Position numbers and translations under genes: made by a program
Shown here: positions 1-8,045 of the stretch, piece after piece
Position numbering within the stretch: the first letter of the stretch is position 1
Layout of the letters: each line of letters opens with the position of its first letter
Notes under the pieces: model-generated
Told to the model about the DNA's origin: nothing
Seen by the model: the letters and a program-made list of their open reading frames with translations, nothing else
Database searches by the model: none
Assembly: GCF_003334815.1 (NCBI RefSeq)
Contig: NZ_QOWO01000066.1
Origin: Escherichia coli
Lineage (GTDB): Bacteria; Pseudomonadota; Gammaproteobacteria; Enterobacterales; Enterobacteriaceae
Direction: 5' to 3' (one strand)
Length of the DNA stretch: 8,045 bases

Positions 1-78
1 GTTATCGTGAGAGTAATTCATCGGCACGTTAAATCATATCAGGCGTAATACCACAACCCTTAAGTTAGCGCTTATGGG
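1..78. repeat. Left terminal inverted repeat (78 bp), perfect reverse complement of 7968..8045
   Basis: Hand comparison: bases 1-78 (gttatcgtgagagtaattcatcggcacgtt...ttagcgcttatggg) are the exact reverse complement of the last 78 bases of the window. A further ~12 bp inward match imperfectly (about 7 of 12). Confidence 0.93.
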
Positions 79-124
79 GTAAAACCCCGCGTACTGAATT
101 GTGATGGTTTGGTCTCCTGCACCC

Positions 125-259
125 TTTTTTAATTTATATTGTTTATGTGAATATTATGCCTATGTTTATTATTCATATATATTACGGATGAAAATTATTT
201 GATTATTCATAATGTAAATATTTTATTGAATGATATATATCACAGATAATTTTTAATAT
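125..259 (+). promoter_or_regulatory. AT-rich putative promoter/silencing region upstream of cas3
   Basis: Very AT-rich tract with several TATA-like elements immediately upstream of the cas3 start. From established knowledge, enterobacterial type I-E cas promoters are AT-rich and H-NS repressed. No precise -35/-10 assignment could be made by eye. Confidence 0.4.
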
Positions 260-2959
260 ATGCGTAAATATCCTTTAAGTTTACTGAAGGATAAAAATAT
301 TGTGACTTTTTTTGATTTCTGGGGAAAAACCCGACGCGGCGAGAAAGACGGGGGCGACGACTATCACCTTCTTTGCTGGCATTCGCTGGATGTAGCCGCG
401 ATGGGCTATTTAATGGTTAAAAGAAATTGCTTCGGGCTGGCTGATTATTTTCGTCAATTAGGGATTTCTGACAAGGAACAGGCGGCTCAATTTTTCGCCT
501 GGTTGCTGTGCTGGCACGATATTGGAAAATTTGCCCGCTCTTTTCAACAACTTTACCTGCCCCCTGAACTCAAGATTCAGGAAGGTGCCAGAAAAAATTA
601 CGAAAAAATCTCTCATTCAACGCTGGGCTACTGGTTGTGGAATCATTATTTAAGTGAATGTCAGGAGTTACTTCCTTCATCTTCGCTCTCTCCGCGCAAA
701 CTTAGGCGAGTGATAGAAATGTGGATGCCCGTGACGACAGGGCATCATGGTCGGCCCCCTGATCGTATGGATGAATTGGATAATTTTCTGCCTGAAGACA
801 AAGCTGCAGCACGAGATTTTCTCCTTGAAATCAAACCACTGTTTCCGCTCATAGAGATCCCCGCATTCTGGGATGATGATGAGGGCATTGAACTTATAAA
901 ACACCTTTCCTGGTATATCTCTGCAACCGTCGTGCTCGCAGACTGGACGGGTTCGTCAACGCGATTTTTTCCACGCGTCGCACACCCAATGGATATTAAA
1001 GGTTACTGGCAGAAAACTTTAATTCAGGCTCAAAACGCCTTAACCGTCTTTCCTCTAAAAGCAAAAGTCGCGCCTTTCAACGGAATTAATACGCTGTTTC
1101 CTTTTATTGAGAATCCGACACCGTTACAGCAAAAGGTGCTGGATCTGGATATCAGCCAGCAAGGACCGCAGTTATTTATTCTGGAAGATGTGACTGGCGC
1201 AGGTAAAACAGAAGCGGCGCTTATCCTGGCGCACAGGTTGATAGCTGCGGGGAAAGCTCAGGGGCTGTTTTTTGGTCTGCCAACAATGGCAACGGCCAAT
1301 GCCATGTACGATCGGCTGGTCAAAACCTGGCTTGCTTTCTATTCGCCAGAATCCCGCCCCAGCCTGGTGCTGGCACATAGTGCCCGCACATTAATGGACC
1401 GCTTTAATGAATCACTCTGGTCTGGTGATTTAGTCGGGTCAGAAGAACCGGATGAACAAACGTTCAGTCAGGGATGTGCGGCCTGGTTTGCCGACAGTAA
1501 CAAGAAGGCGTTGCTGGCTGAAATTGGCGTCGGCACGCTGGATCAGGCGATGATGGCGGTGATGCCGTTCAAACATAATAATCTGCGGCTTCTGGGGCTG
1601 AGTAACAAAATCCTGCTGGCTGATGAGATCCACGCCTGTGACGCTTACATGTCGTGCATTCTTGAAGGGTTGATCGAGCGGCAGGCGCGTGGCGGAAACA
1701 GCGTTATTTTGCTTTCTGCCACGTTATCTCAACAGCAGCGCGACAAACTCGTCGCTGCCTTTGCGCGGGGTACAGAGGGCCAGCAAGAAGCTCCGTTCCT
1801 GGAAAAGGATGATTACCCCTGGCTGACGCATGTCACGAAATCCGATGTGAACTCACACCGGGTAGCGACGCGCAAAGACGTTGAGCGTAGCGTCAGCGTG
1901 GGTTGGCTTCATAGTGAACAAGAGTGTATTGCGCGTATCGAATCGGCGGTAAGTCAGGGGAAATGCATCGCCTGGATCCGGAATTCTGTCGATGACGCTA
2001 TTAAGGTTCATCGTCAGCTGCTTGCCCGCGGCGTCATTCCTGCTTCCAGCCTTTCACTTTTTCATAGCCGCTTTGCTTTTAGCGATCGCCAGCGAATTGA
2101 AACGGAAACGCTGGCACGCTTTGGTAAATATTGTAGTTTACAGAGAGCGTCGCAAGTCATTGTTTGTACACAAGTAATTGAGCAAAGCGTGGATATTGAC
2201 CTGGACGAAATGATCTCCGACCTGGCCCCTGTTGATTTGCTGATTCAGCGAGCAGGACGATTACAGCGGCATATCCGCGATATTAATGGTCAGTTAAAGC
2301 GTGACGGAAAGGACGAGCGTTCCCCCCCTGAATTGCTGATTCTGGCTCCCGTCTGGGACGACTCTCCTGGCGACGAATGGTTTGGCAGTGCCATGCGTAA
2401 CAGTGCATTTGTCTATCCCGATCATGGGCGAATCTGGCTGACGCAGCGTGTGCTGCGTGAGCAAGGTGCTATTCAGATGCCACACGCAGCCCGGCTTCTT
2501 ATTGAATCCGTCTACGGTGAGGACGTGGTAATGCCGGAAGGATTTGCCCGCAGCGAGCAGGAGCAAGTGGGCAAATATTACTGTGATCGCGCAATGGCTA
2601 AAAAGTTTGTGCTGAACTTCAGGCCCGGCTATGCCGCCAATATCAACGATTACCTCCCGGAAAAACTGTCGACACGTCTGGCTGAGGAGTCTGTTTCCCT
2701 GTGGCTGGCTACCTGTATTGACGGTGTGGTGAAGCCTTATGCCACCGGTGCTCACGCATGGGAAATGAGCGTTGTCAGAGTGCGCCGAAGCTGGTGGAAA
2801 AAACATCGGGATGAGTTTTCTTTACTGGAGGGAGAGGCGTTCAGGCTGTGGTGCATTGAACAGCGACAAGATCCGGAGATGGCAAACGTGATTTTAGTCA
2901 ACGATGACGAAAGTTGCGGGTATTCGGCTACGGAAGGATTGATTGGCAAGGTTGGTTGA
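260..2959 (+). CDS. cas3: Type I-E Cas3 HD nuclease / superfamily-2 helicase (899 aa)
   Basis: Long ORF with ATG at 260 and TGA at 2957-2959. N-terminal HD-domain motifs (HLLCWHSLDVAA, CWHDIGKF), Walker A (DVTGAGKTEAAL) and DExH-like box (LLADEIHACD). Size and position upstream of cse1 match type I-E cas3. No clear Shine-Dalgarno before the ATG, so the exact start is uncertain. Confidence 0.93.
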   Translation: MRKYPLSLLKDKNIVTFFDFWGKTRRGEKDGGDDYHLLCWHSLDVAAMGYLMVKRNCFGLADYFRQLGISDKEQAAQFFAWLLCWHDIGKFARSFQQLYLPPELKIQEGARKNYEKISHSTLGYWLWNHYLSECQELLPSSSLSPRKLRRVIEMWMPVTTGHHGRPPDRMDELDNFLPEDKAAARDFLLEIKPLFPLIEIPAFWDDDEGIELIKHLSWYISATVVLADWTGSSTRFFPRVAHPMDIKGYWQKTLIQAQNALTVFPLKAKVAPFNGINTLFPFIENPTPLQQKVLDLDISQQGPQLFILEDVTGAGKTEAALILAHRLIAAGKAQGLFFGLPTMATANAMYDRLVKTWLAFYSPESRPSLVLAHSARTLMDRFNESLWSGDLVGSEEPDEQTFSQGCAAWFADSNKKALLAEIGVGTLDQAMMAVMPFKHNNLRLLGLSNKILLADEIHACDAYMSCILEGLIERQARGGNSVILLSATLSQQQRDKLVAAFARGTEGQQEAPFLEKDDYPWLTHVTKSDVNSHRVATRKDVERSVSVGWLHSEQECIARIESAVSQGKCIAWIRNSVDDAIKVHRQLLARGVIPASSLSLFHSRFAFSDRQRIETETLARFGKYCSLQRASQVIVCTQVIEQSVDIDLDEMISDLAPVDLLIQRAGRLQRHIRDINGQLKRDGKDERSPPELLILAPVWDDSPGDEWFGSAMRNSAFVYPDHGRIWLTQRVLREQGAIQMPHAARLLIESVYGEDVVMPEGFARSEQEQVGKYYCDRAMAKKFVLNFRPGYAANINDYLPEKLSTRLAEESVSLWLATCIDGVVKPYATGAHAWEMSVVRVRRSWWKKHRDEFSLLEGEAFRLWCIEQRQDPEMANVILVNDDESCGYSATEGLIGKVG

Positions 2960-3056
2960 GATGTCTGCGACAGGACTCTCTGAATAGTTGATACACCGAA
3001 AAGGATGGAAAGATGGACAACCGACCTGGGATGGTCTTTTTTACGAGAGGATGCGT

Positions 3057-4619
3057 ATGAACTCGTTTTCACTTCTGACAACCCCGTGGTTGCCCGTTCG
3101 TTTTAAAGACGGAACGACAGGCAAACTGGCGCCAGTCGATCTGGCGGATGAAAATGTTGTCGATATTTCTGCGCCGCGGGCAGATCTCCAGGGTGCGGTA
3201 TGGCAGTTTTTGCTGGGGCTACTACAAACCAGCTTCGCGCCAAAAGATCATCGTCGTTGGGATGATATCTGGGAAGACGGACTGGAAGCTGAAAAGCTAC
3301 GGGAAGCATTGCAGTCATTAGAACATGCTTTCCAGTTTGGGCCAGATTCCCCTTCATTTATGCAGGATTTCGAGGCGCTCACCGGAGATAAAGTTCCGGT
3401 CGCTTCGCTACTGCCTGAGATTCCCGGCGCTCAAACAACGAAGTTTAATAAAGACCACTTTATCAAGCGTGGTGTAACGGAATACCTGTGCCCACATTGT
3501 TCTGCGTTAGCTCTGTTCTCCCTACAGTTGAATGCGCCGTCAGGTGGCAAAGGCTACCGCACCGGTTTACGCGGCGGTGGGCCGATGACCACTCTGATTG
3601 AATTACAGGAATATCAGGGTAATCAACAAACTCCCTTGTGGCGCAAACTGTGGATCAATGTCATGCCGCAGGATGAAGCCGATTTACCGCTACCCAAAAA
3701 ATTTGACGATCTGGTTTTCCCCTGGCTTGGCCCGACGCGCACCAGCGAACTGGCCGGTGCGGTGGTAACCGATGAGCAGGTCAATAAACTCCAGGCGTAC
3801 TGGGGAATGCCTCGCCGTATTCGTATTGATTTTAATACCACGACAGTCGGCAACTGCGATATTTGCGGTGAGCAGAGCGACGCGCTCCTGAGCCTGATGA
3901 CGACCAAAAATTACGGTGCGAATTATGCCATGTGGCAGCATCCCTTAACGCCTTACCGTGTACCACTTAAAGAGGGTGGCGAGTTTTACTCCGTTAAACC
4001 ACAACCGGGCGGTTTAATCTGGCGTGACTGGTTAGGCCTTATCGAAACGGGTAAATCAGAAAACAATACGGAACTTCCCGCGCTGGTGGTGAAACTCTTC
4101 AATGCCAGCAGTCTCAAGCAGGCAAAAGTGGGCCTGTGGGGATTTGGCTATGATTTCGACAACATGAAAGCGCGCTGTTGGTACGAACACCATTTCCCGC
4201 TGCTGCTCGATAAAAAAGAAGGTCAGATACCGAAGCTGCGGCTGGCTGCGCAAACAGCTTCACGGATTCTAAGTCTGTTACGGAGTGCATTGAAAGAAGC
4301 ATGGTTCTCCGATCCAAAAGGTGCAAGGGGTGATTTTAGTTTTGTGGATATCGACTTCTGGAACAAAACTCAGCATCGCTTTCTGAGGTTAGTGCGCCAA
4401 ATTGAAGAAGGTCAGGATGCGGATGAATTACTCAGCAAATGGAATAAGGAAATTTGGTTATTCGCACGTCAGGATTTTGACGAGCGTGTATTCACCAATC
4501 CTTATGAGCCCGTTGATCTGGAACGCGTCATGACCGCGCGCAAGAAATATTTTACAACATCGGCGGAGAAGCAAAGTGCTAAAGCCGCCAGGGAGAAAAA
4601 GCAGGAGGCTGCTGAATGA
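3057..4619 (+). CDS. cse1: Cascade large subunit Cse1/Cas8e (CasA), ~520 aa
   Basis: N-terminus MNSFSLLTTPWLPVRFKDG resembles the E. coli CasA N-terminus (..NWIPVR..) and an internal GLRGGGPMTT resembles CasA SGLRGGTPVTT, both as I recall them. The stop overlaps the cse2 start. Start chosen at ATG 3057, with GAGG six nt upstream; the ORF-track start at 2988 is a TTG, and ATG 3051 is also possible. Confidence 0.88.
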   Translation: MNSFSLLTTPWLPVRFKDGTTGKLAPVDLADENVVDISAPRADLQGAVWQFLLGLLQTSFAPKDHRRWDDIWEDGLEAEKLREALQSLEHAFQFGPDSPSFMQDFEALTGDKVPVASLLPEIPGAQTTKFNKDHFIKRGVTEYLCPHCSALALFSLQLNAPSGGKGYRTGLRGGGPMTTLIELQEYQGNQQTPLWRKLWINVMPQDEADLPLPKKFDDLVFPWLGPTRTSELAGAVVTDEQVNKLQAYWGMPRRIRIDFNTTTVGNCDICGEQSDALLSLMTTKNYGANYAMWQHPLTPYRVPLKEGGEFYSVKPQPGGLIWRDWLGLIETGKSENNTELPALVVKLFNASSLKQAKVGLWGFGYDFDNMKARCWYEHHFPLLLDKKEGQIPKLRLAAQTASRILSLLRSALKEAWFSDPKGARGDFSFVDIDFWNKTQHRFLRLVRQIEEGQDADELLSKWNKEIWLFARQDFDERVFTNPYEPVDLERVMTARKKYFTTSAEKQSAKAAREKKQEAAE

Positions 4620-5152
4620 GTATTGTAAAAGAGGAGCACAAAGCCACGCTGCGCAAATGGCACGAGGAATTGCAGGAGAAACGTGGCGAACGTGCCAGTC
4701 TGCGGCGTAGTACGACGGTTAATGATGTTTGTCTGACGGATGGATTTCGCCTGTTTCTGAAGAACAGACAAATAAAGTGGCAGGATGAACCTGAGTGGCG
4801 TATCACCGCACTGGCGCTGATAGCCGCAGTTAGCGCCAATGTTAAAGCTATTGATGAACGGCAGCCTTTTGCCGCGCAGCTGGCGGCGGTAATGTCAAAG
4901 GGGCGTTTTACTCGTCTGTCGGCAGTAAAAACACCGGATGAATTACTGCGCCAGTTACGCCGCGCAGTCAGATTATTAAACGGTTCCGTCAATCTTGACT
5001 CTCTGGCAGAGGGGGTCTTCCGTTGGTGCCAGGAGAGCGACGACCTGCTCAATCATCACCGCCGCCAGCAGCGGCCAACCGAATTTATCCGTATCCGCTG
5101 GGCGCTGGAATATTACCAGGCTGGCGACGCCGATAACGAACAAAATCAATAA
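4616..5152 (+). CDS. cse2: Cascade small subunit Cse2/Cas11 (CasB), 178 aa
   Basis: ATG at 4616 overlaps the cse1 stop (ATGA), with AGGAGG about 8 nt upstream. Size, basic/helical composition and position between cse1 and the cas7 start are as expected for Cse2. Assignment is mainly by synteny and size. Confidence 0.8.
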   Translation: MSIVKEEHKATLRKWHEELQEKRGERASLRRSTTVNDVCLTDGFRLFLKNRQIKWQDEPEWRITALALIAAVSANVKAIDERQPFAAQLAAVMSKGRFTRLSAVKTPDELLRQLRRAVRLLNGSVNLDSLAEGVFRWCQESDDLLNHHRRQQRPTEFIRIRWALEYYQAGDADNEQNQ

Positions 5153-5163
5153 AGGACTATCTC

Positions 5164-5208
5164 ATGACAACATTTATTCAGCTTCATTTGTTAAGGGGCG
5201 GCTTATGA
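5164..5208 (+). pseudogene. cas7: cas7 (casC/cse4) remnant: 14-codon stub MTTFIQLHLLRGGL*
   Basis: ATG at 5164 preceded by AAAGGA at the expected spacing. The first residues (MTTFIQLHLL) resemble the E. coli CasC N-terminus (MSNFINIHVL, as I recall it). The ORF ends after 14 codons at a TGA that overlaps the cas5 ATG. A native cas7 is about 360 codons. Confidence 0.5.
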
Positions 5209-5526
5209 GCCAATATCTGATTTTTCAGCTTCATGGGCCGATGGCGTCCTGGGGTGTCGATGCTCCAGGTGAAGTTCGTCATACCCATGAACTTCCTTCG
5301 CGCTCAGCATTGCTGGGGCTACTGGCTGCCGGGGTAGGGATTCGGCGTGATGATACCGAACGCTTAAACGCGTTTAATCGCCACTATTCACTGGTGGTTT
5401 GCGCCAGCCGTAACCCGCGCTGGGCACGGGATTATCACACGGTCCAGATGCCAAAAGAGGTGCGTAAAGCACGTTATTTCAGCCGTCGCGAAGAGTTGAG
5501 CGACCCTGATCCGCACGCACATTCCG

Positions 5527-6605
<1,079 letters not shown>

Positions 6606-6701
6606 GTTATCCGTTCTTTAAAAATAAGGAAATGTTTTAATTTAGTTGGTAGATTGTTGATGCGGAATAAATTTGTTTAAAAACAGTTATGTATGCTTAG
6701 T
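6606..6701 (+). promoter_or_regulatory. CRISPR leader (AT-rich, between cas2 and first repeat)
   Basis: 96-bp AT-rich segment immediately upstream of repeat 1 and downstream of cas2, the canonical I-E leader position that carries the array promoter and IHF/integration signals. Confidence 0.8.
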
Positions 6702-7949
6702 GTGTTCCCCGCGCCAGCGGGGATAAACCGAACATTAAATTGCCGTGCTGGATGAATCGCGGGTGTTCCCCGCGCCAGCGGGGATAAACCCTGGATCAGC
6801 TGGTTCAATCGTTTACAGCACTGGTGTTCCCCGCGCCAGCGGGGATAAACCGGCAGTAAATTATTTGACCTCGTTGATAATCCCGTGTTCCCCGCGCCAG
6901 CGGGGATAAACCGCCGGTGCAACTGATATTGATAAACGTCGACTCGTGTTCCCCGCGCCAGCGGGGATAAACCGACACCCGACCGCTAACCGATTTCGTT
7001 ACAGTAGTGTTCCCCGCGCCAGCGGGGATAAACCGTGTATCACCGAAAGAATGGTTTGACGCGCAGGGTGTTCCCCGCGCCAGCGGGGATAAACCGACGT
7101 CTATCATTTTCAGTACAAGCTGGGTTTTGTGTTCCCCGCGCCAGCGGGGATAAACCGGACGATCCCGAGATTCACAGAGTTACAACTAAGTGTTCCCCGC
7201 GCCAGCGGGGATAAACCGGAAATTTTCACATGGATTGTAGCCCTGTATATGTGTTCCCCGCGCCAGCGGGGATAAACCGGCCAGGCGGTCGGATTAGGTG
7301 CAAATCAAAATGTGTTCCCCGCGCCAGCGGGGATAAACCGCGCTGGCGGTGCGAGTGCTGGAGGCGCTGAAAGTGTTCCCCGCGCCAGCGGGGATAAACC
7401 GCAGGAGACGGCCAGCCGGAACGGCGGCGGCGTGTGTTCCCCGCGCCAGCGGGGATAAACCGTCGGGCGGCTCTGGTGTTCCTGACATGGCGGCGTGTTC
7501 CCCGCGCCAGCGGGGATAAACCGAATTTGCATCACATAGGGGCGAGGCTCAGTGAGTGTTCCCCGCGCCAGCGGGGATAAACCGTTCTTGCGGGTGTTGC
7601 AAATATTCTCCACGTAGTGTTCCCCGCGCCAGCGGGGATAAACCGCCTGTTTTTTGTGCGGGGAATTATGGGGGAATGTGTTCCCCGCGCCAGCGGGGAT
7701 AAACCGTTATACTGATTTTGATTTGTATTTCGGTCGCTGTGTTCCCCGCGCCAGCGGGGATAAACCGACACGCCCTGCCGTATTTACTGACGCGCAGGAG
7801 TGTTCCCCGCGCCAGCGGGGATAAACCGCCGCGCAAATCCAGCGAGCCGCCGACGCTCAGTGTTCCCCGCGCCAGCGGGGATAAACCGTTGCAAACCGTG
7901 GCAAACGCAATTAACAAAAAGTGTTCCCCGCGCCAGCGGGGATAAACCG
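6702..7949 (+). CRISPR. Type I-E CRISPR array: 21 x 29-bp repeats (GTGTTCCCCGCGCCAGCGGGGATAAACCG), 20 unique spacers
   Basis: Repeat starts at 6702, 6763, 6824 and so on at 61-bp period to 7800, then 7860 and 7921. Spacers are 32 bp except spacer 19 (7829-7859, 31 bp). Repeat 2 ends in C instead of G (6791). The repeat has the CCCCGC/GCGGGG stem and ATAAACCG 5-prime handle typical of I-E crRNA. Transcribed on + from the leader, so the newest spacer is 6731-6762. Confidence 0.97.
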
Positions 7950-7967
7950 AGTTAAGAGGGGGTTTTT

Positions 7968-8045
7968 CCCATAAGCGCTAACTTAAGGGTTGTGGTATTA
8001 CGCCTGATATGATTTAACGTGCCGATGAATTACTCTCACGATAAC
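7968..8045. repeat. Right terminal inverted repeat (78 bp), reverse complement of 1..78
   Basis: Hand comparison shows an exact reverse-complement match to bases 1-78. It begins 18 bp after the last CRISPR repeat. Confidence 0.93.

Follow-up and report, generated by a model that had tools for sequence, protein, structure and literature searches.

Nearly all that is known about the regulation of CRISPR and the associated cas genes in Escherichia coli, including Pcas, H-NS, LeuO, CRP and LrhA, comes from the K-12 variant of the locus. In K-12, a 414-bp region with 29% GC separates cas3 from casA and hosts Pcas together with a divergent promoter, cas3 has a separate promoter, and the AT-rich promoter DNA is under regulation of the H-NS/LeuO type (PMC8616872; PMC7019758). 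The cas-STY variant of Salmonella Typhi is also a type I-E system with AT-rich promoter DNA regulated by H-NS and LeuO, with five mapped transcription units (PMC8039139). Another Salmonella variant, cas-STM (Typhimurium, Enteritidis, diarizonae), has contiguous cas genes and is shared with Escherichia (PMC7712790). In S. Typhimurium cas3 is treated as a member of the cas operon (bioRxiv 10.64898/2026.02.26.708173), and in S. Enteritidis deletion of cas3 raises cse1 expression 20-fold, with other cas genes going up too (PMC7168661). Here we analyze the cas locus in an 8,045-bp stretch of E. coli DNA (contig NZ_QOWO01000066.1 of assembly GCF_003334815.1; hereafter, the window), which is the known non-K-12 type I-E variant, called Cas-EO in E. 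coli and cas-STM in Salmonella. Judging from the layout of the locus and its relatives, we consider it rather probable that intact copies of this variant form a single operon read from upstream of cas3.

As in cas-STM and its relatives, the genes lie on the same strand in the order cas3-cse1-cse2-cas7-cas5-cas6e-cas1-cas2-CRISPR, and the likeness to the loci of Salmonella, Citrobacter, Klebsiella and Phytobacter includes Cas3 (~70% identical), Cse1 (~75% identical) and a low GC content upstream of cas3. Cas3 is 67-72% identical to its homologs in Salmonella diarizonae, Citrobacter, Klebsiella and Phytobacter, and ~29% identical to that of K-12. Within E. coli, the window belongs to the variant known as Cas-EO of O157:H7 or 'var. 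B-8552', which has CRISPR-A repeats, but the window copy has two internal deletions. With K-12 it shares the system type, chromosomal site, gene order and an AT-rich leader, but not the cas3-casA promoter region, and the region upstream of cas3 is barely alignable between the two. In cas-STY, unlike in the window, cas3 is located on the complementary strand and the gap measures 357 nt (PMC7712790). We considered the promoter map of S. Typhi, which could be taken to speak against a single unit, as a comparator and rejected it, because Typhi carries this different variant and the map does not transfer. The contiguous layout is already described for the lineage, the variant is very common, and the decay of cas genes by deletions and insertion sequences (IS) is well known (PMC2886076; PMC12736100); nothing in the window sequence would surprise a specialist.

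The original prediction held that the cas3-cse1 gap is short and not AT-rich compared with a longer one in K-12, and both parts stand: the intergenic spacer (2960-3056, plus strand) measures 97 bp with a GC content of 0.474 and ends at the cse1 ATG at 3057, whereas the corresponding region of strain MG1655 measures 414 bp (GC 0.29). The spacer was found in 2,437 of the 5,426 complete E. coli genomes (~45%), always chromosomal and never annotated. As a variant lacking the K-12 cas3-casA region is thus present in ~45% of complete genomes, the regulatory models developed for K-12 are not simply transferable to most natural isolates. We also considered the spacer as a repeated or mobile element and rejected this option, because there is one copy per genome; the spacer matched no Rfam family.

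Comparison of the intergenic architecture with related genomes, suggested as a check, favours co-transcription. The gap is 97 bp long in E. coli, 89 bp in Escherichia albertii and Escherichia sp. MOD1, 151 bp in K. indica and 500 bp in K. spallanzanii; the 170-bp gap of Intestinirhabdus alba shows homology with that of Escherichia at both ends, and the gap of Chimaeribacter, 856 bp long, is AT-rich. Salmonella diarizonae, Citrobacter youngae, Citrobacter sedlakii, K. grimontii and Phytobacter have a gap of 10-11 bp, with the cse1 Shine-Dalgarno sequence GGAGG located within the final part of cas3 and the last 800 bp before cse1 free of AT-rich islands. Given such a junction and no such island, cse1 in these short-gap loci almost must be read from a transcript that covers cas3. 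Escherichia, unlike these relatives, has added a conserved spacer of 89-97 bp with its own Shine-Dalgarno sequence, and we infer that this spacer originated within the branch formed by Escherichia and Intestinirhabdus.

Promoters were scored using consensus and position weight matrix (PWM) scans of both strands, with composition-preserving shuffles as controls. In the gap (2960-3056) the consensus scan called no plus-strand sigma-70 site and no intrinsic terminator, and no promoter site was found on the minus strand. The PWM scan placed most of the top plus-strand matches of the window within 128-260 and a single moderate match in the gap (TTGATA N15 AAAGAT, score 7.5), which is lost in the 89-bp version of E. 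albertii. In addition, RNA from the gap and its surroundings would be rich in G (GC skew +0.33), whereas the sites used by Rho are C-rich. The absence of promoter and terminator signals from the gap, combined with the relatives having 10-11-bp junctions, favours co-transcription from upstream of cas3. In intact copies, cas3, the Cascade genes, cas1 and cas2 would then be transcribed together, for the most part, from one or more promoters in the conserved proximal part of an AT-rich tract preceding cas3, while the CRISPR array would be served by its own leader promoter.

The AT-rich tract had been delimited as 125-259, and at 135 bp and a GC content of 0.148 it is indeed the lowest-GC stretch of that length in the window. 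Of all 135-bp stretches, 1.4% have less than 25% GC, and these fall within the tract without exception; apart from the tract, GC drops below 30% in just one further island, the CRISPR leader (6606-6700, GC 0.263). The tract may extend further downstream, however, depending on the start of cas3. The cas3 open reading frame spans 260-2959 and RefSeq starts the protein at ATG 260, which is probably wrong; the alignments and the nucleotide sequence indicate that GTG 302 is most likely the start. Homology of Cas3 to proteins of other genera begins at residue 15 of the annotated protein. The 42-nt stretch 260-301 contains an in-frame stop in E. albertii and a frameshifting 1-nt insertion in Escherichia sp. 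MOD1, its GC content (0.24) is like that of the tract, and GAAGGA is present at 286-291, before GTG 302. The intact gene (302-2959, plus strand) encodes an HD nuclease and helicase, scoring above the cut-offs of NCBIfam profiles TIGR01596 (cas3_HD) and TIGR01587 (cas3_core), and its product is 100% identical to WP_001233949.1 of strain NCTC9100. Because cas3 most likely starts at GTG 302, we take the untranslated tract to be 125-301 rather than 125-259; from composition and alignments, these 177 bp (plus strand, GC 0.169) are the presumed promoter region of cas3 and the operon. Depending on the limits, the GC content of the tract is thus 0.148-0.169 over 135-177 bp, compared with 0.51 in cas3, and the region upstream of cas3 is low in GC among most relatives. 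In strain ETEC4073 (4260-6958), which belongs to the same IS-flanked lineage, cas3 is frameshifted and the remaining operon is intact, representing an independent decay event.

The two halves of the tract differ in conservation. E. coli strains hardly vary in the proximal half (216-301), whereas the distal half (125-215) is variable and occurs in two E. coli haplotypes, one in the window and SMS-3-5 and the other in E14, WS3294A and ERL05-1306, which are ~12% different and also differ by indels. The haplotypes do not correlate with cas3 divergence, as E14 has a cas3 99.8% identical to that of the window, and the split suggests recombination or fast turnover. A conservation-filtered scan for -10 elements revealed GATAAT at 245-250 (plus strand), which would be the best conserved -10 candidate: its A2 and T6 are kept in seven out of seven Escherichia sequences, and E. 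albertii has GAATAT. In a second conserved candidate, CATAAT at 208-213, A2 and T6 are kept even in E. albertii. Both -10-like hexamers (208 and 245) are no more than suggestive of a promoter; a transcript starting near 257 from GATAAT would fit a leader of ~45 nt up to GTG 302. Homology of the tract with the region upstream of K-12 cas3 and its CRP site was also considered and discarded, the two being essentially unalignable (PMC7019758).

H-NS represses cas3 in Klebsiella pneumoniae (PMC4987720) and cas promoters in K-12 (PMC8616872; PMC7019758). It is plausible that the tract holds a promoter silenced by H-NS, considering its base composition, the low GC content upstream of cas3 in most relatives, and the analogy with K-12 (PMC8616872), S. 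Typhi (PMC8039139) and K. pneumoniae (PMC4987720).

A number of observations weigh against transcription of cas3 and the Cascade genes as one unit from this tract. The best promoter score in the tract, 9.94, lies below the shuffle mean of 11.3 and is at least equalled by 83% of shuffles. Applied to the K-12 Pcas region, the same scoring does not tell it from shuffles (36% reach the observed score), and since a known promoter is missed in this way, the lack of a match in the gap is weak evidence. The H-NS high-affinity motif TCGATAAATT, allowing at most two mismatches, has 13 matches in the window compared to 8.8 expected, and one of them is in the tract, while in K-12 deletion of hns raises cas3 promoter activity only slightly (PMC7019758). 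A weak hairpin followed by six T residues (3023-3042) could attenuate read-through, and weak or activator-dependent promoters could conceivably lie inside the cas3 coding sequence. Moreover, the constraint on the spacer and its being the sole sizeable non-coding stretch leave room for an internal regulatory element, and our literature search found no transcript mapping of the non-K-12 E. coli variant. Thus, of the claim that cas3 through cas2 are driven as one unit, the part resting on a gap with no credible promoter or terminator, on the short-gap relatives and on the literature on contiguous genes held up; the expectation of a recognizable promoter in the AT-rich tract did not, as its matches are no better than those of shuffles.

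An arrangement of two units, as in K-12 and S. Typhi, is possible but not what we would expect. According to it, cas3 would be transcribed from the AT-rich tract, and Cascade, cas1 and cas2 mainly from a separate weak or activator-dependent promoter of the LeuO/LrhA type located in the spacer or at the end of cas3. Such a division into a cas3 unit and a cse1 unit is established for K-12 (PMC7019758) and S. Typhi (PMC8039139), although in Typhi it concerns another variant of the locus (PMC7712790). Among the junctions of the intact operon, which otherwise range from -19 to +11 bp, the spacer alone is sizeable, and across Escherichia its conservation exceeds the neutral level; it contains a -35-like TTGATA (2988-2993) and an invariant AATAGT at 2983, and scoring of sequences is unable to exclude weak promoters. 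However, no workable -35/-10 pair can be formed: the TTGATA-N15-AAAGAT pairing is lost in the 89-bp spacers of both E. albertii and MOD1. Furthermore, at 47% GC the spacer is not H-NS-like, and in the same lineage Salmonella, Citrobacter, Klebsiella and Phytobacter have junctions of only 10-11 bp and lack any AT-rich island over the last 800 bp of cas3.

The conservation of the spacer deserves closer consideration. It differs from E. albertii and MOD1 by 3 and 5 substitutions, respectively, over 89 sites, whereas the neighbouring third codon positions differ by 13-15%, making the spacer the more conserved of the two (binomial P = 0.0006 and 0.017). What sets the 97-bp E. coli gap apart from the 89-bp one of E. 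albertii and Escherichia sp. MOD1 is an 8-bp tandem duplication (GATGGAAA at 3004-3011 and GATGGACA at 3012-3019). Downstream of it are a weak 4-bp hairpin (GACC at 3023-3026 and GGTC at 3033-3036), the T-run (3037-3042) and the cse1 Shine-Dalgarno sequence (GAGAGG, 3045-3050); these are contained in the 3' 45 nt, the most conserved part of the spacer across eight Escherichia sequences. The spacer therefore appears to be under some constraint, at least in the region of cse1 translation initiation. That it would go beyond this and serve as a functional regulatory element, whether as a weak internal promoter or operator dependent on a regulator or, at the RNA level, by affecting termination or cse1 translation, we regard as rather unlikely. 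If it were so, the element would uncouple Cascade from Cas3 expression in the common E. coli variant, and most natural CRISPR-Cas loci of E. coli would be regulated differently from both K-12 and Salmonella Typhimurium.

The RNA form of this idea, in which the hairpin and U6 (3023-3042) would partly terminate transcription, or CUCUC (2976-2980) would pair with the GAGAG of the cse1 Shine-Dalgarno sequence, thereby setting the ratio of Cas3 to Cascade within a single transcript, is in our opinion very unlikely. The hairpin and T-run do lie directly before the cse1 ribosome-binding site in the best conserved part of the spacer, a naturally occurring C-to-T substitution leaves the stem paired through G-U, and RNAalifold pairs CUCUCUGAA with UUUACGAGAG. 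Yet the stem has just 4 bp and fails the terminator scan, which called for a U-run preceded by a GC-rich stem of 5 bp or more. The gap folds no better than shuffles (z = 0.42, and z = -0.04 for the hairpin with T6), and none of the 58 pairs predicted by RNAalifold in the gap is compensatory. Neither pairing is kept in register in I. alba, and the CUCUC/GAGAG pairing involves only invariant bases. The hairpin arms of E. coli (GACC/GGTC) and I. alba (GTCC/GGAC) seem at first to differ in a compensatory way, but we dismissed this, because the arms are out of register in the alignment. Finally, less Cascade relative to Cas3 would contradict the known stoichiometric need.

Positions 1-5194 of the window are 100% identical to strain NCTC9100 by BLAST, at least 80% of the window length is matched in 2,105 complete E. 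coli genomes, and in the matching chromosomes the locus occupies its usual site between cysH/hok and iap. Positions 1-76 (minus strand) are the end of an IS421 element (IS186-type, IS4 family), identified from a 93-nt inverted repeat shared with the opposite end of the window and from the annotated transposase in related loci. Its terminal inverted repeat spans 54-76, and the transposase start codon is at 19-21 on the minus strand (MNYSHDN...), directed away from cas3. The end of a second copy (7970-8045, plus strand) is inverted relative to the first. Between the left IS421 and the tract lies the 3' part of the hok/gef locus (77-124, plus strand, GC 0.52); in IS-free strains the hok/gef coding sequence stops ~11 bp upstream. 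This segment is nearly invariant across Escherichia, E. albertii included, unlike the tract that follows. Position 79, taken earlier as the left limit of the region, merely reflects the IS boundary, the left IS stopping at 76.

With IS421 adjoining the region at 76/77, 225 bp upstream of the cas3 start, one might suppose that cas3 of the window strain is transcribed from the IS421 end or from a hybrid promoter formed by the IS and its flank. The inverted orientation of the cassette in another strain, 52F4 (see below), adds to this, because the sequence driving cas3 has to move along with either the cassette or the IS. We nevertheless consider IS-driven transcription extremely unlikely: the transposase start at the adjacent IS end points away from cas3, positions 1-125 contain no notable promoter-like site on the plus strand (best score 7.06), and IS-free strains have the same AT-rich tract and layout.

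Each IS421 copy has its own 10-bp target duplication, GGGTAAAACC (77-86) for the left one and GGGTTTTTCC (7960-7969) for the right one; that of the left copy is visible at either side of the IS in a related locus (L002), in which the two copies lie at 1738-3076 and 13305-14643. A composite transposon (IS421-cas-CRISPR-IS421) was considered and rejected on account of these separate duplications and of the location of the locus at its native cysH-iap site. The two copies are independent insertions, one in the hairpin CGCGGGGGTAAAACCCCGCG just past the hok stop, which is split by the left IS421, and the other in a CRISPR spacer, splitting the array. IS186-type elements prefer GC-rich targets resembling GGGG(N6-7)CCCC, and both insertion sites in the window presumably fit this preference. 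Pedersen and Gerdes reportedly found in 1999 that chromosomal hok loci of E. coli K-12 are inactivated by IS150 or IS186 inserted close to the hok frame, and we take the left IS421 near hok in the window to repeat this pattern of hok-adjacent insertions.

In E. coli 52F4 (NZ_CM147848.1, 860-11788) the entire cas-CRISPR cassette bounded by IS421 has the opposite orientation with respect to cysH/hok and iap. Evidently, the ~9-kb segment flips by recombination between the inverted IS421 copies, and consequently the orientation of the window within its source genome is not readable from the contig. In E. albertii NBRC 107761 (296-1634), an IS421-type element occupies exactly the site it has in the window upstream of cas3, pointing either to a hot spot for insertion or to a segment that is shared and has recombined. 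The cas3 and cse1 carried by JAIJJM010000114.1, a contig of 6,981 bp labelled 'MAG: Collinsella sp.', are 98-99% identical to those of E. coli; the contig probably comes from E. coli and was mis-binned.

While the single operon is proposed for intact copies, the unit assumed to run from cas3 to cas2 is broken in the window itself, which has lost cas7 and cas6e and retains only parts of cas5 and cas1. Gene completeness was judged with NCBIfam profiles. Downstream of cas3, all on the plus strand, cse1/casA (3057-4619; full TIGR02547 profile; its stop overlaps the cse2 start) and cse2/casB (4616-5152; TIGR02548) are intact. They are followed by a cas7 stub of 14 codons (5164-5208; MTTFIQLHLLRGGL*), left by the first deletion and identified from BLAST offsets against NCTC9100, the junction and the translation. 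A truncated cas5e (5205-5630) covers profile positions 1-95 of 230, being native up to ~5509 and continuing as out-of-frame cas1. The 3' portion of cas1e (5510-6315), lacking the start and the first ~39 codons, covers profile positions 43-268 of 269, and its stop overlaps the start of the intact cas2e (6312-6605; full TIGR01873 profile).

Relative to NCTC9100, the first deletion removed 1,025 bp at a TAA microhomology (5192-5194) and is frameshifting; the second removed 1,188 bp at a GA microhomology (5508-5509), taking with it the 3' end of cas5e, the entire cas6e and the first 116 nt of cas1e. The Cascade gene set is thus incomplete, with cse1 and cse2 of full length, cas7 reduced to a stub, cas5e partial and cas6e gone, and as a result of the loss of cas6e in the second deletion Cascade cannot be made from the window copy. 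The adaptation pair is incomplete as well, an intact cas2e being accompanied by a 5'-truncated cas1e. The window operon is therefore a decaying remnant, unable to make Cascade or Cas1, and the practical value of this copy lies mainly in the correct annotation of the cas3 start, the deletions and the IS boundaries.

The three ATGA stop-start overlaps reported for the window, at 4616-4619, 5205-5208 and 6312-6315, are all present, but the translational coupling read from them could apply to only two. The overlaps of cse1 with cse2 and of cas1 with cas2 are conserved in intact loci. The one between the cas7 stub and cas5 is a deletion artefact: the ATGA at 5205 exists because the first deletion joined the stub to the cas5 start, which is preceded by a 10-bp spacer in intact loci.

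Partial cas deletions and IS insertions are well documented in degraded loci of Escherichia, Shigella and Salmonella (PMC2886076; PMC12736100), and what is particular to the window lineage is the specific pair of deletions and the invertible cassette bounded by IS421. Strain 52F4 carries only the first deletion, with the same junction, and the two deletions occur together in no complete genome of the collection. VTB96935v and OZ547226.1 have an apparently different, smaller deletion extending from cas5 to cas1.

Adjoining the array is an AT-rich CRISPR leader (6606-6701, plus strand, GC 0.26) with a promoter-like TTGGTA N16 TAAATT at 6646-6673. The array (6702-7969, plus strand) comprises 21 repeats and 20 spacers plus a fragment. 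The 29-bp type 2 repeat, GTGTTCCCCGCGCCAGCGGGGATAAACCG, is the CRISPR-A variant, which accompanies the non-K-12 Cas-EO (O157:H7-type) cas genes (PMC3737337; PMC12736100), and the spacers are 31-32 bp long. The fragment (7950-7969) is a spacer cut by the right IS421, and in related loci the remaining array continues past the IS. None of the 20 spacers (6702-7949) has an exact match of at least 28 nt in the phage or plasmid collections searched. Candidate phage and plasmid targets were rejected, their matches being other arrays only, hit via the repeat. Among these repeat-driven matches are short records filed as phage that are essentially CRISPR arrays, such as OR845838.1 (1,567 bp), as well as two plasmids of true size, LC542972.1 and CP107157.1, which carry repeats of the I-E type.

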